From contig JAVZSA010000002.1 in assembly GCA_038880255.1 (NCBI GenBank), positions 1 to 63,253 of the forward strand: DNA of 63,253 bases, written 5' to 3'. The translations under genes were made by a program, and so were the position numbers. The notes beneath the pieces were generated by a model. The model searched no databases. It had not been told where the DNA came from and was given only the letters and a program-made list of their open reading frames with translations. This DNA is from Thermoplasmata archaeon. Lineage in GTDB: Archaea; Thermoplasmatota; Thermoplasmata; Thermoplasmatales; ARK-15. Shown here one piece after another: positions 6,835 through 53,970 of the stretch. Numbering within the stretch: the stretch's first letter is position 1; each line of letters opens with the position of its first letter.

Positions 6835-7947
6835 ATGGTAACATTAATAATAAGTGTGGACAGAGATAACGATGTGGGTAGGAAGACTGATGAAAATGGT
6901 CCTATCATTGGTAGGGAGAATAATTTAAGGGTGGCAAATAAGTTAATATTGGCTGATCCAGAAGACTCTGATGCAAATGCAATTTTTGGTGCAGTTTCCA
7001 TTTATGATTCTCTTAAAAAAGAAGGGAAAGATGTGGAAGTTATTACTTTAACAGGTGATATATCTGTTGGTATTAAAAGTGATCAAAAGATAAGAGATGA
7101 ATTGTTAAAAATAAAGGATGAAATTAAACCTACAGATGCTATACTTGTTAGTGATGGAGAAGAGGATGAATTTATTTTACCAATAATTACTTCTATTGTT
7201 CCTGTAATACATGTTAAAAGAATAATAGTGAAACAAAGTAAAGGTCTTGAATCATCTTATTACATTCTTGTTAGAGCGTTAAGAGATGAAAAAGTAGCAA
7301 GAAAAATTATGGTTCCCATTGCCTTGATTTTTTTGGCATATAGCGTTTCTGTATTTGGATTATTACTATGGAAATTTTACTTTCCTTCTTCATACTATCC
7401 AGATCCTGGTACCTTTGGAATTGCCTTTGTTCTTTTTACCCTAGGCCTTTACTTTCTTTTGAGGGGCTTTAGGGTAGGAACAAAAATTGAAAATGCATAT
7501 AATAAATTTAAAAAATCATTTATTGAAGCAAAAATTTCAATTACTTCCGATTTACTTGCAATCTTTATAATATTATTTGGTATAATCTCCTCATATGATA
7601 TTTCAATATATTCAAAACAATTATTTCCCTCCATTGCATTATTTTTCCAGAACCTAGTATTATGGATAGTTTTAGCAGTTGTTGTGAGGGAAGCTGGGAT
7701 CGCTATGGATATATTTTTACATAAGAAAGGAAAAATAAGAAATTATCTTATTGGACTCTCCTTAGTAATAGGTTTAGGAATTCTTGTTTATGGTTCAATA
7801 ATGTATATTAGAGTTCTCCTTTCATATATACCCCAAAATTTTAATGAACCAAGTCTAATAATTATTGCAATGGGATTGGTACTATCTATTTTTTCATCTG
7901 TGATGGGAAGAATTCTTTATGAGGAGGAAAAGGATGAATTACAATGA
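6835..7947 (+). CDS. conserved archaeal membrane protein (DUF373-like)
   Basis: 370 aa. Soluble N-domain (ISVDRDNDVG...ADPEDSDANAIFGA...SDGEEDE) followed by several hydrophobic helices. The family assignment is from memory. Confidence 0.6.
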   Translation: MVTLIISVDRDNDVGRKTDENGPIIGRENNLRVANKLILADPEDSDANAIFGAVSIYDSLKKEGKDVEVITLTGDISVGIKSDQKIRDELLKIKDEIKPTDAILVSDGEEDEFILPIITSIVPVIHVKRIIVKQSKGLESSYYILVRALRDEKVARKIMVPIALIFLAYSVSVFGLLLWKFYFPSSYYPDPGTFGIAFVLFTLGLYFLLRGFRVGTKIENAYNKFKKSFIEAKISITSDLLAIFIILFGIISSYDISIYSKQLFPSIALFFQNLVLWIVLAVVVREAGIAMDIFLHKKGKIRNYLIGLSLVIGLGILVYGSIMYIRVLLSYIPQNFNEPSLIIIAMGLVLSIFSSVMGRILYEEEKDELQ

Positions 7948-8593
7948 TTGGAAAAAATATTATAAGAAATTATTAATTGAATTTAATTTTAGTGAAAAAA
8001 AAGATATGAAAAGTGCAGAGTTATTATCTTCATTACTTGAAAATAAATTTTTAAAATTAGATGAACTAAAAACAATTATTAATGGGAAAAAAATTTTTGT
8101 GTTAGGAGATTCGCCATATTTTTCTCTTAGTCCATCAATGATTGAAGGAAAGGTAATAATTTCAGCAGATGATGCAACGAAAAAGATATTAGAATTGGGT
8201 TATAAGCCGGATATAGTAATCACAGATCTCGATTCACCAAATAGATTGATAATGGAAGCATCAATGATGGGATCCATAATAGGAGTTCATGCTCATGGAG
8301 ATAACATTGAGAAATTGAAAATTGTTGAAAGCTTTGAATTAAGATTTGGAACAACCCAAGCTTTTCCTCTTTGGAACGTTTACAATTTTGGAGGATTTAC
8401 TGATGGGGACAGAGCTGTTTTTCTGGCTGAACATTTTAAACCACGATCAATAACAATAGCTGGCTTTAATTTTTATGATCCAAATATGTCTAAAGGAAAG
8501 GACATTTATAAGAAATTTAAAAAATTAATTTTTTCAAAATATTTGTTAGAAGAACTTATTAGAAGAAGTGAAGTTAAAATTGAAATAATATAG
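7934..8593 (+). CDS. 6-hydroxymethylpterin diphosphokinase MptE-like protein (DUF115)
   Basis: ITDLDSP and GVHAHGDN motifs as in archaeal MptE. ATG 7934 is preceded by GAGGAGGAAAAGG. Overlaps the upstream gene end. Confidence 0.6.
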   Translation: MNYNDWKKYYKKLLIEFNFSEKKDMKSAELLSSLLENKFLKLDELKTIINGKKIFVLGDSPYFSLSPSMIEGKVIISADDATKKILELGYKPDIVITDLDSPNRLIMEASMMGSIIGVHAHGDNIEKLKIVESFELRFGTTQAFPLWNVYNFGGFTDGDRAVFLAEHFKPRSITIAGFNFYDPNMSKGKDIYKKFKKLIFSKYLLEELIRRSEVKIEII

Positions 8594-8673
8594 AATTTCT
8601 CTCTTAATTTTAAAAAATTTATTTAAGGATATTTTCCTGTATGCTTATTATTCTAATTTAAAAATATAATAAA

Positions 8674-8696
8674 TTATTAATAAATTTTATTAATAA
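8674..8696. repeat. two tandem copies of the perfect 10-bp palindrome TTATTAATAA separated by 3 nt
   Basis: Read directly at 8674..8683 and 8687..8696, in the intergenic region upstream of nnr. Confidence 0.5.
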
Positions 8697-8763
8697 TGAA
8701 ATATATAAATATCTATAAAAATTTTCATGTGATTTTAAATATTTAAAATAAATTACATAAACT

Positions 8764-10173
8764 ATGTATAAAATGTTAGATGCAAGAATATTGGATAAAA
8801 ATGCTGAATATTTAGGTCTTAATTTAGAGAAATTTATGGATAATGCAGGTATTGCAGTTGCCAATACTGTATTATCAATGAATGCAGATAAAATTTTAGT
8901 GGTTTGCGGTAGTGGAAACAATGGTGGTGATGGTTATGTATCTGCTATTCATCTAAAAAAAATAGGAAAAAAAGTCGATATATTAAAGGTTAAGGAACCA
9001 AAAAGCCCATTATGTATAAAAAAATATAATGATGCAATTTCAAATAATATTAATTTTGTTGAGGATCCAGATTTTTCACAATATGATGTCATTGTTGATG
9101 CAATGTTAGGTATAGGTATTTCAAAAACACCGGAAGAACCCTATAAAACAATAATCGAAAAAATGAATAGGTATGGAAAAAAAATAGTTTCTGTTGATGT
9201 TCCAACTGGTATTGGTACATCTTTACAGGTAAACCCACATATTACAGTTACAATGCAATTTATGAAAGAAGAGATGAATAAGGAAAATTCAGGAGAGATT
9301 ATTGTTGCAGATGTAGGTTTTCCTAAAGAGGTAATAGAAATGATAGGGCCTGGAGATTTTTTAGCTTACAAAGAAAATGCATCTTCCAGCCATAAGGGAG
9401 AGAATGGTGTACTTATAGCAATAGCTGGAAGTATTGAATATTACGGCGCACCCATTTACATGGTTAAGGGTGCCTTAAGGACTGGTGTAGATCTTGTTTT
9501 TCTATTTTCACCGTCAAAAATCCATAACTATATCTCATCAGCTACCTATGATATAATACTTAGGAAAAGTGGTGAGAATTATATTGAATACACTAATGAA
9601 ATGGATGATTTAATAACAAACAAATCAACAGCAATTTCATTGGGGTGTGGTATTGGAAAAAATGAAAAATCATTGGAAAGCTCAATAAAAATTATAGAGA
9701 GAGCTTTAAAAATAAAAAAACCCATTGTAATTGATGCTGATGCCCTTTATGCAGTAAGTAATTTTGATGATTTCTCAAGGAATGCAGTAATAACACCGCA
9801 CCGTGGAGAATTTAAAAAATTGTTTTCGCTTGATCCTGATGAAAATAATGTTGTAAAAGTGGCTAAAAAATATTCTTTAGTGATACTATTAAAGGGGCCG
9901 ATAGATATAGTTACAGATGGGGAAATAGTCAAAAAAAATAGGGAATTTCATCATCCAAGTATGACAAGAGGTGGAACTGGAGATATATTAACTGGTGTTG
10001 TTGGTGGACTGCTTTCTAGAGGAATTGATCCATTACATTCAGCATCGTTGGGCAGTTTTATATCTGGGAGTGCAGGCAAAATTACATATGAAGAAAAGGG
10101 AAATTCTTATTATACATCAGAAATTTTGAAAAATATTCCAAAAATATTTAAAAAATATTACAATAATTTTTAA
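8764..10173 (+). CDS. nnr: bifunctional NAD(P)H-hydrate repair enzyme (epimerase/ADP-dependent dehydratase)
   Basis: 469 aa. N-terminal YjeF_N motif CGSGNNGGDGYV. C-terminal carbohydrate-kinase motifs HKGENG and GGTGDILTG. Confidence 0.85.
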   Translation: MYKMLDARILDKNAEYLGLNLEKFMDNAGIAVANTVLSMNADKILVVCGSGNNGGDGYVSAIHLKKIGKKVDILKVKEPKSPLCIKKYNDAISNNINFVEDPDFSQYDVIVDAMLGIGISKTPEEPYKTIIEKMNRYGKKIVSVDVPTGIGTSLQVNPHITVTMQFMKEEMNKENSGEIIVADVGFPKEVIEMIGPGDFLAYKENASSSHKGENGVLIAIAGSIEYYGAPIYMVKGALRTGVDLVFLFSPSKIHNYISSATYDIILRKSGENYIEYTNEMDDLITNKSTAISLGCGIGKNEKSLESSIKIIERALKIKKPIVIDADALYAVSNFDDFSRNAVITPHRGEFKKLFSLDPDENNVVKVAKKYSLVILLKGPIDIVTDGEIVKKNREFHHPSMTRGGTGDILTGVVGGLLSRGIDPLHSASLGSFISGSAGKITYEEKGNSYYTSEILKNIPKIFKKYYNNF

Positions 10174-10201
10174 TATCAAGTTATTTATTCTATTAAATTA
10201 G

Positions 10202-12961
10202 ATGAGTATTGAAAAGGCAAAAATTAGGTCGGCATTACCTTTTAACGTCCCATATAAAAAGGAAGATATATATTCATTATCCTTTTCTGATTTTATAGCA
10301 AAAATAAATGAAACTTATAATTCCATAGTCCCATTAAAACCTTCAACGCCTTCTAAAATAACTACTGATAAAATGGTAATACCGATGGATCCTATTTTAC
10401 CAATATTTCTAAAAAGGCCTGTAGTTAATTTTAATCAAATTTTACAGGATATTTCAAAGTTCACAAATCCTTTTTTAATTCCTTCCGGAGATCCTGATTC
10501 CATTTGGTCTCTTGATGTTATTTTTGAAAAATTGTTCAAAAGCAATTCCATAAATATAATTAAAAAATCGGTTTATTATTGTGATTTTTGTGGTACACAA
10601 CTTTCCAATAGGGATATTCATTTTGAAAAAGGTGAATTAAAAAAATTATATGCTAAAATAAAAATTTCTGAAAACACATATTTTATTTTTGAAGGACCTG
10701 AGGAAGTGGTATTACATCTTGATGGTATAAATATAAATCCTGATAGTATATTTATTTTACAAAATTTAGGAGAAGAAAAATGGATAATAGAAAAAAATGT
10801 TTTCGAAAGATTAAAGGAAAAAACTATTATTTTTCCATCTAAAATGGAAGAGAAAAAGGGTAAAGAGATTGTTGATGAATTTAAAATTGTCAAGGCCACA
10901 TTTATTCAGGAAATGCCAACTAAGTTTTTATCATCGGATATAAGTGATAATGATGCTATTATCATAGGCGAAGATGGAAAAAAAATACCTGTTGAGATTA
11001 TTGATCATGAATCTATTGAGGGAAATGTTCCTCATTGCAATTATTGCAATAAAAAGGTGACAAAAAAGAGGTTAAAAGGGGTATATCTAAAATTTAATAA
11101 CTTGAATTTTAGTATATTTCCAAAAAATTTTATAAGAATAAATGAAAAGAATATTTTAATTTCAAAGGATTTTAAAAATTTTCCTAAACTCCCTATAGTA
11201 GAATGCGATAAATGTGGAAGATTTGAATATGGCCAAAATGAAAAATCATGTATATGCGGTGGATTGATGACAAAAAAATACTCCTATGATCCCTCAATTT
11301 TACCATTAGGTGTTTACACAATGGTACAATCATATAAAAATAAGGGTATTTTAAATCATAAAGAGTTTAAGCATAGATTTCTTATGCTTGCTTTTATGTC
11401 TGAATTAAAGGCAAATTTTTTTTCTGATATATTTATTTATTATACCGATTTGAAGAATTATGATAATTTTTCAAATGAGGATCCTGAGGTAATAAGATTA
11501 TCATTCATATGTAAAAAAAATGGGAAATTCCACGAGAGTGATGTTAGGAGATTTAAAAAATTAAAAAATATGTTTGTTAACATTATTTCTTATAGTGAGA
11601 TTCATGGAGTTAGGGATGTTGAAAATATAATTGATCTGTGGATTTTTTCAGAATTGGAAAAATTTAAAGAGGAAATATTAAATTTCCTTGAAAATTACAA
11701 TTTCGGAGCCATTATAAGGAATTATGAATTTTTAATTTATAAATTTTCTAGAGATTACTTGCAAATGTTAAGAAAAAATAAAATTAATTCACAGGCATTT
11801 AATGAACTTCTAATATTATCTTACCCATTCTTTCCAAATTCCACAAAAAAATTCGCAAATAAATTTGGTATTGATCTTAATGATTTTAAAATAGGTAAAT
11901 TTTCCATAAATCAAACAATTGAAAAATTGGAAATGCAATTAAAGATGGGAAAAAGGGAAATATTGAAAATTAAAAGAAATAAGGAATTACCGGAATCAAT
12001 TCCTTTAAAAAAATTAATTATTGAAGTGGATTTTAAATATATTCCATTATTAATAAATATTAAACAGGAATTGATGAAATATTTTAACGCTTTTAATATT
12101 GAGATTACAGAAAAATGGCAAGGTCTTGAATATAGAGCTAAATTAAATAAAGATAAACTAGGAGAAATATACAAACCTCTCGCAAATATAATAGAAAATG
12201 TTCTTAGTAAAATTGATGCAAAAAAATTAAAAGAAGAAATCCAAAAGCATAATTATGAAATAGGTGTTGAAGGTAATTTAATCATTATCACACCTCAAAT
12301 GGTGGACTTCGTTTATGAATTACCGAAAAATTTTGAAATGATAGATTTAACAAATATTAAATTATTTGTAAATTTTGAAAAAGATGAGGAAATTATTAAT
12401 TTTGACATTGTAAAGAGATTATCAAGAAATATTTCATGGATGAGGAAAAAGGCTGGAATAGAGTATGATGATTTTATTGATGTTTCAATTTCAAATTCAA
12501 CACTAATAAAGAATAGTTTAAAGGGTTATATTCAAAAATTTAAGGAAAATTTAAAAATAAGAAACATCAATTTTTCTGATAGGATAACAGAATCTTTGAT
12601 TTTGACATTTAATAACATTGTTGAGGGTGAAATAGAAATTGGGATATCCCCCGTTTATAGAAAGTATAAAATTAAAGCAATTTCAAAACTTCCTGGACTT
12701 ACAAATGAAGATGCTGAAAATATATATAATGCTGGCTTTACAACAATAGATGAAATTAGAAAAAAAGATCCAAAACTAATTTCTGAAAAATCAAATGTAC
12801 CTTTATCAAAAATAAAAATAATAAAAGATTATTTAAATAATATTTTAAGCTTTAAGGTTTTGATCATAAAAGAAAAGTATTATTGTCCTATGTGTGAATC
12901 CGAACTAAATAGTATGGAAAAAAATTGCCCAAAATGTCAAGTTACTCTGGATTGGTCTTAA
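10202..12961 (+). CDS. class Ia aminoacyl-tRNA synthetase (IleRS)-like protein lacking HIGH/KMSKS, with C-terminal HhH and zinc ribbon
   Basis: 919 aa. Cys knuckles YYCDFCGTQLS, PHCNYCNKK, VECDKCG..CICGG. Anticodon-domain-like DLWIFSELEKF...FSRDYLQMLR and LSYPFFPNS. IleRS-like C-terminal extension. Then LPGLTNEDAENIYNAGFTTIDEI and CPMC..CPKC. See finding. Confidence 0.5.
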   Translation: MSIEKAKIRSALPFNVPYKKEDIYSLSFSDFIAKINETYNSIVPLKPSTPSKITTDKMVIPMDPILPIFLKRPVVNFNQILQDISKFTNPFLIPSGDPDSIWSLDVIFEKLFKSNSINIIKKSVYYCDFCGTQLSNRDIHFEKGELKKLYAKIKISENTYFIFEGPEEVVLHLDGININPDSIFILQNLGEEKWIIEKNVFERLKEKTIIFPSKMEEKKGKEIVDEFKIVKATFIQEMPTKFLSSDISDNDAIIIGEDGKKIPVEIIDHESIEGNVPHCNYCNKKVTKKRLKGVYLKFNNLNFSIFPKNFIRINEKNILISKDFKNFPKLPIVECDKCGRFEYGQNEKSCICGGLMTKKYSYDPSILPLGVYTMVQSYKNKGILNHKEFKHRFLMLAFMSELKANFFSDIFIYYTDLKNYDNFSNEDPEVIRLSFICKKNGKFHESDVRRFKKLKNMFVNIISYSEIHGVRDVENIIDLWIFSELEKFKEEILNFLENYNFGAIIRNYEFLIYKFSRDYLQMLRKNKINSQAFNELLILSYPFFPNSTKKFANKFGIDLNDFKIGKFSINQTIEKLEMQLKMGKREILKIKRNKELPESIPLKKLIIEVDFKYIPLLINIKQELMKYFNAFNIEITEKWQGLEYRAKLNKDKLGEIYKPLANIIENVLSKIDAKKLKEEIQKHNYEIGVEGNLIIITPQMVDFVYELPKNFEMIDLTNIKLFVNFEKDEEIINFDIVKRLSRNISWMRKKAGIEYDDFIDVSISNSTLIKNSLKGYIQKFKENLKIRNINFSDRITESLILTFNNIVEGEIEIGISPVYRKYKIKAISKLPGLTNEDAENIYNAGFTTIDEIRKKDPKLISEKSNVPLSKIKIIKDYLNNILSFKVLIIKEKYYCPMCESELNSMEKNCPKCQVTLDWS

Positions 12962-49495: not shown

Positions 49496-49568
49496 TGCCG
49501 TGGGCCGGGATTGAACCGGCGGCCTCCAGATCTTCAGTCTGGCGCTCTCCCAGCTGAGCTACCACGGC
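49496..49568 (-). tRNA. tRNA-Phe (anticodon GAA)
   Basis: The reverse complement folds as a cloverleaf: GCCGTGG-TA-GCTC-AGCTGGGA-GAGC-G-CCAGA-CTGAAGA-TCTGG-AGGCC-GCCGG-TTCAATC-CCGGC-CCACGGC-A. 73 nt, no intron, CCA not encoded. Confidence 0.92.
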
Positions 49569-49680: not shown

Positions 49681-50064
49681 TTATTTTATAAATATCACAT
49701 TAAATTTACCTACATTTTCCAAATATATTGTAATATCTGGATTATCTAAATTTACATCTTTTCCCAACTTTTCTTTTATTATTTGGCCAAGAATTCTGTT
49801 ATCTTCCATTTTTCTTCTTCTTTTAGATCTAACTGCAAATGTTTTAAAATTTATTTTTCTTAAGATTTCAGGAACTTCCTCCAATGATTCTATAATATAT
49901 GAGTCATAACCACCATTAATTTCACCATTATACATTATTAACATTTTATTTTCTTCAATAAAGTAAATAAATTCACCATCCTTATTTAAAAATTCTTCCT
50001 TCAGTGTATTCACAAAATTTTTAAGTTCGTTTCTATTTTTAAAATAAAATAATTTCATCTTCAT
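49681..50064 (-). CDS. stand-alone THUMP-domain protein
   Basis: 127 aa. C-terminal half TFAVRSKRRRK...LGQIIKEKLGKDVNLDNPDITIYLE matches the THUMP core pattern (tFxVrxkr...vGxxi...VdLxnPd). ATGA overlap with the upstream gene. Confidence 0.55.
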   Translation of the reverse strand: MKMKLFYFKNRNELKNFVNTLKEEFLNKDGEFIYFIEENKMLIMYNGEINGGYDSYIIESLEEVPEILRKINFKTFAVRSKRRRKMEDNRILGQIIKEKLGKDVNLDNPDITIYLENVGKFNVIFIK

Positions 50065-52124
50065 CTTATATGCCCTAGGGTAAAAGATCCCATAATTATT
50101 CCACTCTTAGATGGAGAAATTTCTATCCAGGATCTGCTCTGTGCCTCAGTAATTCCATTAACTTGTAAATATACCTTGCCCATTTCCAATTTGAATTCAA
50201 TTGTACCATCCATCAAATGTGAAACAAGTTGTATTGCATTCTCTTCGTGGAGTCCCTTTTCCAAAAGATATAATGAAACTGCCCTTTCTTTTTTTCTTTT
50301 AGTAGTAAATGGTTGCAAAAATCTTACAACAGTAGGTGCATCAAGAAATGTCAATATTGTTGAAAGTGAGAAAAATGCTAATCTATAATACTTATAATTT
50401 GATTTCAATTCAGAAACTATTTTGTCTATACCTTCAACTATGCCATTTATATCTGTCTGTGAATCTATATAAATAACATTTTTCCTATCAGATTTTTCAC
50501 CTATTGTCTTTGAATAAGCATCCAAATATTTAACGAGACCATTTTCCACATATGTATCCCATGTGGGAAGAACATATTTTACATCCTCTTCAAATATTTC
50601 TATTGTTTTATCTGTGAGGATTACCAGCGCAGGAATTCCTTTTTTTAAGCCTTCTGCAAGGAAAGAATAAATTAGTACCTCCTTACCTGTATAAGCAGGA
50701 CCATAAACTATTATGTTTGATCCAAGTGGAAATCCGCCATAAAGAAGATCGTCCAACCTTCTAGTTCCGGTTTTTACCTTCTGTTCTTTTATTTCTGAAA
50801 CAATCTCTTCCTGAGACATTGCAATTTCCTTTTCTATTATTCCTTTTGTTCTAGCATCTAATTCTTTTTCCTTTTCTCTCAAATATTTTTCCTTTTCCCT
50901 CAGTTGCTCTTCTTTTCTTTTTATTAATTCATTTAAATCCTCTATTTTATGTTCTTTTTCCAATTTTTTCAATTCCTCTATCTCAATTTTTTGCGATTCA
51001 AGTTCGCGCATCATTTGTTCTACCTTCTTCTCCCTAAATAATAGATCCTGCTCCCTTCTTGAAAATTCCTCTTCCTTGAATTTCAATTTTTCTTTAAGAT
51101 CTTTAATTTCCTTTTCTAGTATTTCTACCTGACTTTTTAAATTCTGATTTTCCATTTTAATTTTTTCAACATTTAATATTTCTTCTGTTTTATTTAAAAT
51201 ATCAGTATTGCCTGATGAAATTACTTTAATTAAAGAATTCAACCTATCTACTTCAGACTTAAGAATTTCTTTTTCAATTTCCAATTTTTTAATATTTTCA
51301 GCATCAATTGGTACTTGCTTTAGCTGAAATAATTTTTCCTTTTCCCCCAGCTCCTTTAATTGTTTTTCTAATAAAATTTCCTGTTCCTTAACTTTCATTT
51401 CCCTTTGAGATAGATCTTTAATATTTTCAGGCTGTGATGAAACCCAATCCTCCCATAACTCTTTTTGAATTTCTACCCTGTTTTGAAGACTCTCTATTTC
51501 AGCCCTTAATTCTGCATTTTCCATTAAAAGATTTTCAATTTTTTTATTAAGTTCATCATAATCTTTGGCATCTAAAAAATACTTAGCCTGATTTAATATT
51601 TCCTTAAACTTTTCATTTTCAATTTTTAATTCAAAAATTTGATTTTCCAATTCATTTATTTTTTCAGAATATTCAACTAATAATAAAATAAGATTTTCTT
51701 TATTTTTTATATCGTAAATAAAATTCAAGCGATCCAGTATGTTTTTAGTTACAAGCTTAATATTTTCCTTTAAAATCTTTAAATCCTCATAACTTTTTTT
51801 AATTTCTTCACTTTTTTCTTCTATTTCTTTCTTCTTCTCAAGTAACTCCTCCTTTAATTCAACTATTTTGGCATTTTCCAAATTACCTGTCTCAAGTTCA
51901 ATCTCTTTTATTCTTTCCTCTTCGCCCTTCAACCACTTTTCTAATCCATTAATCTCTTCAAATATATTTTCATAATTTTTAGGTTCATTTTCTCCTTTTA
52001 AAGATTCAATAATAAATTCTAAAAGGAGTGAATTGTATTCCTCTTTACTATACTTTTTACCACATTTCTTACATTGAAGTGTATTTTCGTCTATTTCGCC
52101 CCCACATTGATTACATTTTACCAT
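50061..52124 (-). CDS. zinc-ribbon / long coiled-coil / KaiC(RecA)-like domain protein with degenerate Walker A
   Basis: 687 aa. CNQCGG..CKKCG at the N-terminus, about 400 aa of Glu/Lys heptad-rich sequence, then DDLLYGGFPLGSNIIVYGPAYTGKEVLIYSFLAEGL (KaiC/RecA-like, but GKE rather than GKT/S). Confidence 0.6.
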   Translation of the reverse strand: MVKCNQCGGEIDENTLQCKKCGKKYSKEEYNSLLLEFIIESLKGENEPKNYENIFEEINGLEKWLKGEEERIKEIELETGNLENAKIVELKEELLEKKKEIEEKSEEIKKSYEDLKILKENIKLVTKNILDRLNFIYDIKNKENLILLLVEYSEKINELENQIFELKIENEKFKEILNQAKYFLDAKDYDELNKKIENLLMENAELRAEIESLQNRVEIQKELWEDWVSSQPENIKDLSQREMKVKEQEILLEKQLKELGEKEKLFQLKQVPIDAENIKKLEIEKEILKSEVDRLNSLIKVISSGNTDILNKTEEILNVEKIKMENQNLKSQVEILEKEIKDLKEKLKFKEEEFSRREQDLLFREKKVEQMMRELESQKIEIEELKKLEKEHKIEDLNELIKRKEEQLREKEKYLREKEKELDARTKGIIEKEIAMSQEEIVSEIKEQKVKTGTRRLDDLLYGGFPLGSNIIVYGPAYTGKEVLIYSFLAEGLKKGIPALVILTDKTIEIFEEDVKYVLPTWDTYVENGLVKYLDAYSKTIGEKSDRKNVIYIDSQTDINGIVEGIDKIVSELKSNYKYYRLAFFSLSTILTFLDAPTVVRFLQPFTTKRKKERAVSLYLLEKGLHEENAIQLVSHLMDGTIEFKLEMGKVYLQVNGITEAQSRSWIEISPSKSGIIMGSFTLGHIR

Positions 52125-52126
52125 AT

Positions 52127-52342
52127 TTATTTAGAAGCTATCCTTAAAATATTATTTCCTCTAACTATAACTACACCCAATTTTCTTACAGTGTCATTTA
52201 TCTTCTCCTCTGTATCATCTATAATGAGATTCATATACTCATCAAAACCGATCAACGTTCCTTCTAAAATCCTACTATCCTTCATTAACATTGAAATCCT
52301 TTTATTCATAAACTCTTCAATTACTTTAATTGGCATTGCCAT
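52127..52342 (-). CDS. Sm-like archaeal protein (SmAP/LSm)
   Basis: 71 aa. Sm1 LKDSRILEGTLIGFDEYMNLIIDD and Sm2 VVIVRGNNI. GGTGA lies upstream of the ATG. Confidence 0.9.
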   Translation of the reverse strand: MAMPIKVIEEFMNKRISMLMKDSRILEGTLIGFDEYMNLIIDDTEEKINDTVRKLGVVIVRGNNILRIASK

Positions 52343-52351
52343 TAAATCACC

Positions 52352-52507
52352 TCAATTGTTTGGATATGGCCCCTTATCATCCACTTCATCATCATCGTTA
52401 AAAACCACTTGTACCAATTCGCGCATAAGAGATTTAAGTTCATCTACTTCTTTTCTAAGTTTTTTTACTTCATTATCCAATTTTTCTAATTCATTATTTT
52501 TCCTCAT
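52352..52507 (-). CDS. hypothetical small coiled-coil/acidic protein (51 aa)
   Basis: Below the track cutoff. My translation is MRKNNELEKLDNEVKKLRKEVDELKSLMRELVQVVFNDDDEVDDKGPYPNN. Fills the gap between csl4 and the Sm gene on the same strand. Confidence 0.35.
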   Translation of the reverse strand: MRKNNELEKLDNEVKKLRKEVDELKSLMRELVQVVFNDDDEVDDKGPYPNN

Positions 52508-52518
52508 AAATTTTCCTC

Positions 52519-53097
52519 TCATAATGGTTTATTTTTTACTTTTATTTTAATATTTCCATAATCAACTGCAATTTTTCTAGTCTCATTTCTACCACAATAC
52601 TCACAGTATAAAACATTGTCCTTCCTTTTAAGGGGTTTCCTACATTTCATACAGAGTGCCCTCACAACACCTAGATTTGGTTCAGATGTGGTGAGTTGTA
52701 GGGATGGTTTAGATTTAATTACTTTTGCCCTTACAATATCGCCAATCCTAAACATTTTGCCTATTTCATCAACATACTTATCCGATACTTTAGAAATATG
52801 TATAATACCATCCTGTCTGCCCCCAACAATTTCTCTTTCCATACCTTCTATCCCTACCACCGTGACTATTACAAACTCGTTATAAAGTTCCTGTACTATT
52901 CCATAAACAATTTCACCAATTTTTAAAATTGGCAATTCCTGAATTGGTCTCACATTTATTGTCATATGTTTTTGATTAATTTCCACTTTACCAAGAACAC
53001 TTGAATATATTTTTCCTTCCATTTCTAAGACATTAGTTCCTGGAACATATTCTTCTATTGTACCAAGAAATTCTCCTGGAGATACTATTTTATCCAT
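52519..53097 (-). CDS. csl4: exosome complex RNA-binding protein Csl4
   Basis: 192 aa. N-terminal domain, S1 domain (GIIHISKVSDKYVDEIGKMFRIGDIVRAKVI), C-terminal Zn ribbon CMKC..CEYCG. Confidence 0.85.
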   Translation of the reverse strand: MDKIVSPGEFLGTIEEYVPGTNVLEMEGKIYSSVLGKVEINQKHMTINVRPIQELPILKIGEIVYGIVQELYNEFVIVTVVGIEGMEREIVGGRQDGIIHISKVSDKYVDEIGKMFRIGDIVRAKVIKSKPSLQLTTSEPNLGVVRALCMKCRKPLKRKDNVLYCEYCGRNETRKIAVDYGNIKIKVKNKPL

Positions 53098-53683
53098 ATT
53101 TTTTCACCTTTATTTTTATTAATTTTGCATCAATTTCTTTTATATTCATTTCATGAAATTTAAAACTATAAGGAATTTTAAATTTATAATCTTTTTCCAA
53201 AACTATCTCTCCCTTATTTTTGATAAATTTTTTAATATATTTTATTGCTTCTTTGTGATGTAATGTATAGATTGTATTTGAAATTTCTAGAGCTTTCATA
53301 ATAAAATATCTATCTGCCCCAGGTAACTGATAACCAAATGGTGGATTCATTAAAACTGTGTCTACTTTTATATTAAAATCCATTACATTTATATTGTGAA
53401 ACTTTACATTCATCTCTTTAAGGTTTCTTTTAGCTATATTTATTACATCTTCATCAATCTCTACACAATGCACTTCTTTGGCACCAATAAGATAAGCCCC
53501 TAATGAAAAAGATCCATTTCCACATCCAAGATCAGCTACAACTTTGCCTTTTATATCATCAATTGCAATAAAAATTATATCGGCTACAATATTTGCTGGA
53601 GTTTCATACTGTTCTAGTAATGGATTCTTTTTTTCAATCTTTTCCAAAGATTCTATCTTTAATTCAAGTTCTTTTTTGTCCAT
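53090..53683 (-). CDS. METTL5-like (COG2263-type) RNA N6-adenine methyltransferase
   Basis: 197 aa. LEQYETPANI, motif I VADLGCGNGSF, motif IV VLMNPPFG. The classic neighbour of csl4 in archaea. Confidence 0.75.
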   Translation of the reverse strand: MDKKELELKIESLEKIEKKNPLLEQYETPANIVADIIFIAIDDIKGKVVADLGCGNGSFSLGAYLIGAKEVHCVEIDEDVINIAKRNLKEMNVKFHNINVMDFNIKVDTVLMNPPFGYQLPGADRYFIMKALEISNTIYTLHHKEAIKYIKKFIKNKGEIVLEKDYKFKIPYSFKFHEMNIKEIDAKLIKIKVKKYG

Positions 53684-53685
53684 TC

Positions 53686-53970
53686 TTATTCTCTAATTAT
53701 TCCACTATCAAAAATTTTTATAATTTTTTGGGCCATAGATATTGACTCTTTTTTTGAATAACCTTTTTCCATAAATATATCAACAATGTTCTTATATGCT
53801 CGCTGCCATTTCCAAGTAGACCTTACATAATATGTTTTTATTAAAACCTCTATTACATCATTGCAAATTTCCAGATTATAATTTTCTTTCAATCTTTCTT
53901 TCCAGATTTTATAAATAAATCCTGGGATCACTATTGGTTCAATATAACTTTCTTCAAGTAATTCATTCAC
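53686..53970 (-). CDS. hypothetical protein
   Basis: 94 aa, no motif recognised. First gene of the methylase-csl4-Sm operon. Confidence 0.4.
   Translation of the reverse strand: MNELLEESYIEPIVIPGFIYKIWKERLKENYNLEICNDVIEVLIKTYYVRSTWKWQRAYKNIVDIFMEKGYSKKESISMAQKIIKIFDSGIIRE

Follow-up and report, generated by a model that had tools for sequence, protein, structure and literature searches.

We analysed a window of 63,253 nucleotides (nt) from a Thermoplasmata archaeon (assembly GCA_038880255.1, contig JAVZSA010000002.1, positions 1 to 63,253), and concentrated on a gene of its minus strand that encodes a protein of 687 amino acids (aa) ending in a KaiC-like domain with a degenerate ATPase site. 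The genome has 1.28 Mb, about 30% G+C and a completeness of 93%, and it falls in the Aciduliprofundum/DHVE2 branch. A preliminary description of this DNA, made from its letters and open reading frames (ORFs), had divided the protein into an N-terminal CxxC ribbon, a long heptad-rich coiled coil and a degenerate KaiC/RecA-like domain, and had placed it in an operon of RNA-related genes together with a small THUMP protein. The large protein has the following features.

50061 to 52124, minus strand: gene of the 687-aa protein, with predicted zinc ribbon, WLxGE motif, coiled coil and pseudo-KaiC domain.
52062 to 52115, minus strand: CxxC-x10-CxxC zinc ribbon, residues 4-21, read from the translation.
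51918 to 51944, minus strand: LEKWLKGEE, residues 61-69, one copy of the (A)LxxWLxG(E/D) motif.
50961 to 51980, minus strand: coiled-coil stalk, residues ~49-388 (~340 aa), predicted from heptads relative to shuffled sequences.
50064 to 50789, minus strand: KaiC/RecA-fold domain, residues 446-687, ending exactly at the C-terminus.
50679 to 50702, minus strand: degenerate P-loop GPAYTGKE, residues 475-482, with Gly and Lys kept and Glu in place of Thr/Ser.
50604 to 50630, minus strand: strand 2, ALVILTDKT, with Asp505-Lys506 at the position of the KaiC catalytic Glu-Glu (profile alignment).
50358 to 50390, minus strand: Walker B-equivalent strand YYRLAFFSLST, with Phe585 at the position of the Walker B Asp (profile alignment).

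The C-terminal domain matches the Pfam KaiC family (PF06745) over residues 450-647 with 58.9 bits, for a cut-off of 26.6, and residues 446-687 also match Pfam DUF7504 and DUF7090. A profile of the domain built from 54 sequences finds KaiC (E = 1.7e-35), PH0284 (E = 2e-27), SSO2452 and ArlH/FlaH. The AlphaFold2 model of residues 440-687 has a pLDDT of 93.7 and is most similar, by Foldseek, to PH0284 (template modelling score, TM, of 0.76-0.85), the CI domain of KaiC, SSO2452 and PH0186; the matches to PH0284, KaiC and SSO2452 reach E-values of 1e-15 to 1e-16 with a TM of about 0.8. The domain also contains the TGxxxLD...GGxP helix-loop that makes up the N-terminal part of the RecA-type alpha/beta core. 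Sequence, profile and predicted fold thus make the assignment to the KaiC/RecA superfamily secure, and the preliminary reading of this domain stands.

The elements of catalysis are replaced in this domain. Glu482 aligns to the Walker A Thr in alignments to both RecA and KaiC. To see how far this extends, we used 148 aligned representatives of the family, taken from clusters at 50% identity. Their P-loop is GPxxxGK[E/D], with the Gly present in 141 and the Lys in 136, and the next residue is Glu (110) or Asp (15) in 125 of them. At the second strand, v-t-f-E-E-s of KaiC aligns to v-l-t-D-K-s, and Asp505 and Lys506 are conserved across the family. At the Walker B strand, v-v-i-D-S of KaiC aligns to l-v-f-r-S, and the position of the Asp is occupied by R, L, F, E or D in different members. 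These three replacements are family traits, and not local damage, because they are fixed across the aligned representatives. The Glu in the P-loop and the missing acidic residues, which had been noticed in this one protein, are therefore a property of the whole family. The arginine finger may have been lost as well: Ile658 lies opposite the Arg of the KaiC KxRG hairpin, tentatively, in a part of the alignment that scores low (4.5 bits). Since the Mg-binding Thr/Ser, the catalytic Glu pair and the Walker B Asp have all been lost, ATP hydrolysis is unlikely. Across the class, the domain is 47-63% identical, with many invariant positions and an invariant GSFxLxHIR at its C-terminal end; to judge from these sequences, it is under strong purifying selection. 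The simplest reading would be a pseudo-ATPase that has been retained because it oligomerises or binds a ligand, and thus a clear example of a P-loop domain without its chemistry that is yet strongly selected.

This conservation could also be taken in another way. The protein might be an unconventional nucleotide switch, or a slow ATPase or kinase of the KaiC type, where Glu482 or Asp505 binds the metal and the whole acts as a hub for signalling or timing. Gly475, Gly480 and Lys481 are almost invariant, and Glu/Asp482, Asp505 and Glu/Asp622 are strongly conserved, which suggests that a ligand-binding pocket is maintained. Yet all three canonical catalytic elements are substituted at once, and the substitutions persist across the family; the arginine-finger position is probably Ile or Val, in a region where the alignment is weak. 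The gene neighbourhoods point in both directions: a type IV pilus locus adjoins the gene in one clade, and a role in regulating the type IV pili of archaea has been proposed for KaiC-family ATPases (PMC4858521), but no KaiB-like partner was found in the neighbourhoods examined. Overall, we regard a nucleotide-driven switch as unlikely.

The region that precedes the pseudo-ATPase domain is long and modular. The four cysteines of the putative zinc ribbon (C4, C7, C18 and C21) are present, and the ribbon is kept in the orthologues of the DHVE2 branch and found in 21 of the 150 family representatives listed. The stalk is predicted from heptad-like windows, which take in 317 of the 416 residues from 30 to 445 (117 ± 48 in 200 shuffles, with a maximum of 231), and it is broken by Pro232 and Pro272. 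Charged or amide residues make up 56% of positions 31-445. The ribbon and the coiled coil of the preliminary description are thus borne out by the cysteines and by heptads well in excess of the shuffles. Between the two lies the (A)LxxWLxG(E/D) motif: 22 of the 27 family members inspected have one to four copies of it before the coiled coil. It looks like a docking peptide for some partner. The motif spans very distant members of the family (P0030, P0078, P0087, P0110 and P0126 among others).

A W-x-x-W motif (LWEDWVSSQP, residues 227-235), conserved in the window's family, lies at a heptad break just before Pro232, and the segments that flank the break are similar in length (98-231 and 273-388). 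The break could be an elbow that allows the stalk to fold back on itself.

The preliminary description did not recognise this combination of domains. It turns out not to be rare: it belongs to a class-wide family that databases label as DUF7504, DUF7090 or KaiC, and for which a literature search found no papers on DUF7504, DUF7090 or their Pfam accessions. Orthologues were detected at E ≤ 1e-25 in 235 of the 301 Thermoplasmata genomes searched (a tally that includes one unpublished genome, G129, used nowhere else). This amounts to about four of every five genomes, including methanogen relatives and vent thermophiles, and gives the family a significance beyond the locus studied here. Detection was low in one taxonomic family (1 of 35) and reached about half of another; the genomes were sampled, so absence is unproven in these groups. 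A library of 1.8 billion proteins yielded 136 representatives below 1e-30, every neighbour in the ESM Atlas is a Thermoplasmatota cluster of KaiC/DUF7504 type, and the public contigs closest to the locus are labelled Aciduliprofundum or Thermoplasmata metagenome-assembled genomes. The architecture is constant at one end and variable at the other. Among the 150 representatives listed, the dead KaiC domain ends at the C-terminus or one residue short of it in 126, and the part before it may be absent or as long as about 1000 aa. Elsewhere in the family, the N-terminal modules are helix-hairpin-helix (HhH) motifs or hydrophobic, membrane-like segments.

Two observations complement this picture of the family. 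One taxonomic family (f7; L021 and L022, G030, G033 and others) has a short form of 320-330 aa, made of a short coiled coil and the dead KaiC domain; it lacks the zinc ribbon and is followed by glyA, pdxT and gcvT, and about half of f7 gave no match. The window's own genome also encodes, on another contig (C14:3195-5234), three tandem ORFs for single-domain KaiC-like paralogues (245, 186 and 247 aa). One of them scores 197 bits to Pfam KaiC, and the three adjoin a radical-SAM gene with a wyosine-formation domain.

Comparison with characterised proteins shows where the family departs from them. Like PH0284 (2dr3), PH0186 (2zts), SSO2452 (2w0m) and KaiC CI, it has a RecA-type core that opens with TGxxxLDxLLxGGxP. 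These proteins have the canonical GxxGxGK[ST], the catalytic Glu and the Walker B Asp, whereas the family described here has GK-E, D-K and a variable residue at the respective places. In contrast to single-domain KaiC-like proteins, the domain of the 687-aa protein is preceded by a stalk region of about 400 aa and a zinc ribbon. Inactivated archaeal derivatives of KaiC (DUF835 and MEDS) were reportedly described by Makarova, Galperin and Koonin in mBio in 2017. They share with our family a KaiC fold without ATPase motifs and are thought to be binding or signalling modules. The family studied here is nevertheless a different one (Pfam KaiC/DUF7504/DUF7090), and differs from them by its fixed GK[E/D], its C-terminal position and its coiled-coil stalk.

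The gene of the 687-aa protein is the sixth of a string of seven minus-strand ORFs, which runs from 53970 to 49681. Besides this gene, the string contains the following.

53686 to 53970, minus strand: hyp94, a predicted helical protein of 94 aa, first gene of the string, without a Pfam match.
53090 to 53683, minus strand: METTL5-like (COG2263-type) RNA methyltransferase, 197 aa, assigned by Pfam MTS and a sequence search of the PDB.
52519 to 53097, minus strand: Csl4, RNA-binding subunit of the exosome cap, 192 aa, NCBIfam NF034126 with 200 bits (cut-off 90).
52352 to 52522, minus strand: cc56, a 56-aa coiled-coil/acidic ORF between csl4 and the Sm gene (ORF call).
52127 to 52342, minus strand: Sm-like archaeal protein (SmAP), 71 aa, PF01423 with 72.4 bits, 2 nt upstream of the gene of the 687-aa protein.
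49681 to 50064, minus strand: stand-alone NFLD-THUMP protein, 127 aa, assigned by PF02926, AlphaFold2 and Foldseek.

The gaps along the string are 2, -8, -4, 9, 2 and -4 nt, from hyp94 through methylase, Csl4, cc56, Sm and the 687-aa protein to THUMP, and the last of them is an ATGA, read directly in the sequence, where the TGA of the large gene overlaps the ATG of the THUMP gene. The start of hyp94 is preceded, at a distance of about 20 nt, by a TATA-like TTTTTATAAA, and an oligo-T run follows the stop of the THUMP gene. Packing this tight would allow the seven genes to be co-transcribed, as predicted from the sequence. The preliminary description of the locus was accurate in its ORFs, coordinates, overlap and order of neighbours. 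Its names for the Sm protein, Csl4 and the methylase agree with our matches, which for the methylase are to PH1948 (E = 4e-41), human METTL5 (E = 1.3e-28) and Ta1320 (E = 1.9e-27) among PDB sequences. The ORF that it gave as 51 aa is the frame of cc56 with a later start. Neither cc56 nor hyp94 has a family, and both look like real small genes. For the former, tblastn finds a counterpart at the equivalent position in loci of the window's family and in some further ones of DHVE2. The latter precedes the methylase not only in the window's family but also in A. boonei and other DHVE2 loci. Beyond the string, a tRNA-Phe (GAA) gene lies at 49496-49568 on the same strand, 112 nt downstream of the THUMP stop; it has a TATA-like box upstream and is followed by speE.

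The THUMP assignment of the 127-aa protein is confirmed by several approaches. The protein matches PF02926 over residues 73-118 with 29.1 bits (cut-off 20.6), and three of its orthologues in the window's family reach 23.5-27.3 bits. When 14 orthologues are combined into a profile, it matches ThiI (E = 1e-4) and THUMPD1, and the F-x-V-R and V-D-L-x-x-P-D core is present. The AlphaFold2 model has a pLDDT of 94.0, and its top 12 Foldseek matches are all ThiI, PH1313, Trm11, Trm14 or CDAT8, with no other confident match. The THUMP modules of the solved tRNA enzymes (ThiI, Trm11, Trm14 and CDAT8) dock on tRNA. As in these enzymes and in THUMPD1/Tan1, the whole NFLD-THUMP module is there (Foldseek TM 0.6-0.77); unlike in ThiI, Trm11, Trm14 and CDAT8, no catalytic domain is fused to it. 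The 127-aa protein is thus, by sequence and by model, a complete tRNA-docking NFLD-THUMP module devoid of a catalytic domain.

We considered two known arrangements for such a module and retained neither. The first was a split Trm11, made of the stand-alone THUMP and the methylase of the operon. It was rejected since the genome has a full-length ORF of the Trm11 type (332 aa, contig C11, matching TIGR01177 over positions 1-329 with E = 2.9e-72), and the methylase of the operon is METTL5-like. The sole other Pfam THUMP match in the genome is an ORF of 378 aa. The second was an adaptor similar to Tan1/THUMPD1, the partner of NAT10/TmcA-type acetyltransferases. We dropped it because no match to PF13718, the family of these enzymes, was found in the genome, although such an enzyme may be encoded in the part that is missing from this 93%-complete assembly.

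Is the THUMP protein an obligate subunit of a two-protein complex with the 687-aa protein? The ATGA overlap would fit such a complex, and so would the conservation of the pair in the window's family: the THUMP gene is adjacent to the KaiC-like gene in 15 of 15 relatives, and the string from the methylase through THUMP is intact in every locus examined. Outside this family, THUMP is not found next to the orthologue. Kae1-Bud32 and then an ITPase follow the KaiC-like gene in A. boonei and its relatives. Small THUMP-like ORFs are found unlinked to it, beside DUF1805/ScpB in A. boonei (not confirmed by Pfam) and near FtsZ/L10e in another genus (confirmed by Pfam). In most of the class, the gene of the large protein is present but flanked by others. 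An obligate complex is thus very unlikely in our view. Some DHVE2 genera have an ORF of about 100 aa directly downstream of the KaiC-like gene; we rejected it as a THUMP protein, its matches being weak and sub-threshold, to CheF-arch alone.

The Sm gene has a wider distribution beside the orthologue. It is directly upstream in 29 of 30 loci of the DHVE2 type, and in the remaining one the contig is cut at that point. Neither Sm nor exosome genes are nearby in the other 50 class-level loci examined. Hence, the pairing of KaiC-like and THUMP genes is an arrangement of a single family of vent archaea, and the Sm link is specific to the DHVE2 branch. Two proposals of the preliminary description hold within these limits: the co-occurrence of the THUMP pair extends over the window's family and fails in the other DHVE2 families and in the rest of the class, and the Sm/Csl4 context is confined to the DHVE2 branch and gives way to other neighbours in the rest of the class. 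The THUMP coupling is a local arrangement, and it matters less than the class-wide family.

In separate lineages with different gene arrangements, genes for tRNA modification recur as tight same-strand neighbours of the orthologues, THUMP in the window's family being one of them. Kae1-Bud32, which makes t6A, is a tight same-strand neighbour with a gap of 13 nt. TrmI/GCD14, which makes m1A58, is on the same strand with a gap of 4 nt in six loci, with GatD next; TruD is on the same strand with a gap of 2 nt in two loci; QueC lies 14-15 nt upstream on the same strand in two loci; and TiaS is close by, separated by a small gene of convergent orientation, in about 20 loci. We made a census of the two genes flanking the KaiC-like gene in 60 loci, using our own ORF calls and listing the 25 commonest Pfam/NCBIfam families. 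Sm, HdrA-like, GCD14, Kae1-Bud32, TiaS and the PolD small subunit recur among the families listed. The same census four to five genes away, which serves as a rough control, lists pyruvate/acetyl-CoA carboxylases and ABC transporters. By a rough estimate, no more than a few per cent of the genes of an archaeon serve tRNA modification. Their frequency next to the KaiC-like gene seems to be beyond chance, because they account for five families among about a dozen distinct tight neighbours. This looks like an excess, and we take it as a lead. It suggests some independent support for the RNA-related role put forward in the preliminary description, which had envisaged a filament or scaffold for RNA handling.

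The RNA context could also be coincidental, and the protein a structural, tethering or cytoskeleton-like element, acting at the membrane, on the chromosome or in division, whose gene happens to lie amid packed housekeeping genes. The HhH motifs (typically DNA-binding) and membrane segments that replace the zinc ribbon elsewhere would suit such an element, as would neighbours outside DHVE2 such as a type IV pilus locus and the genes of the PolD small subunit and an HdrA-like protein. The confinement of the Sm and THUMP links to particular lineages also agrees with it. A coincidence accounts less easily for tight same-strand neighbours of tRNA modification in at least four arrangements, with metabolic genes farther away. 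We find this explanation rather improbable. The pilus-like locus is found in one clade (L084, L090-L093, L098, L100, L101 and L104; positions ~7600-12700), past a convergent small neighbour. It encodes a DUF7289 protein, a T2SSE ATPase and further conserved genes, and an HdrA2-like gene lies divergently upstream.

We favour, at even chances, a reading in which the 687-aa protein is a non-catalytic hub on a stalk, with a structural or organising role in the maturation of RNA, especially tRNA. By analogy with PH0284 and KaiC, the dead KaiC domain would form a ring or at least an oligomer. From this hub the long coiled coils would project, with the WLxGE motif and the zinc ribbon at the far end. 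Since the module at the far end varies among lineages (HhH, membrane segments), this end is probably involved in targeting or anchoring the assembly, by the zinc ribbon in the window's family and by the other modules elsewhere. The assembly would hold or present RNA, or the enzymes that modify it, without consuming ATP. In the window's family, the gene would be co-transcribed with those of the METTL5-like methylase, Csl4 and Sm, and translationally coupled to the NFLD-THUMP protein. The latter would be an independent small tRNA-binding factor, a neighbour of the KaiC-like gene in this family alone. If the neighbourhood reflects function, archaea may have in this protein an organiser of tRNA or RNA maturation that has gone unrecognised.

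Several points weigh against a non-catalytic organiser of RNA maturation. The RNA binding, the oligomeric state and the partners of the 687-aa protein are all predictions. The P-loop Gly and Lys and Asp505 are invariant, so that nucleotide may still be bound and even slowly turned over. The census of neighbours is a crude one, made on phylogenetically related loci, and the families were noticed before they were counted. Neighbours vary by lineage, and some of them have no relation to RNA (HdrA-like, PolD small subunit, CTP synthase, membrane proteins and SHMT). Finally, small archaeal genomes have their information-processing genes in clusters, and the tight packing of the string may reflect a genome of 1.28 Mb.

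A bolder version of this reading extends it to the whole class. The Elp4/5/6 ring of Elongator has a RecA fold with degenerate nucleotide-site motifs, and binds tRNA for a modification enzyme. The family could be a functional analogue, i.e. a class-wide dead RecA-fold ring on a stalk that binds tRNA or the enzymes of tRNA modification, with Sm and THUMP as lineage-specific accessory RNA binders. The likeness consists of the RecA fold, the degenerate site and the tRNA-modification context, and the ring and the tRNA binding would follow by analogy. There is no specific homology to Elp4/5/6 beyond the RecA core: the match to PAXNEB (Elp4/5/6) over the P-loop region has E = 1e-5 and 25.3 bits, below the cut-off of 28 bits. 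We claim an analogy and no membership, and hold this extension to be doubtful.

A small gene also recurs next to the orthologues. It encodes a protein of about 147 aa without a Pfam family (cluster c1) and, in 21 of some 50 class-level loci, converges with the KaiC-like gene (e.g. L101:6760-7200, minus strand). As a candidate THUMP protein it was rejected, both by eye and by Pfam. The window's genome has a homologue of it (E = 2e-36) on another contig, at C14:7914-8336, between an AsnC regulator and TFS.

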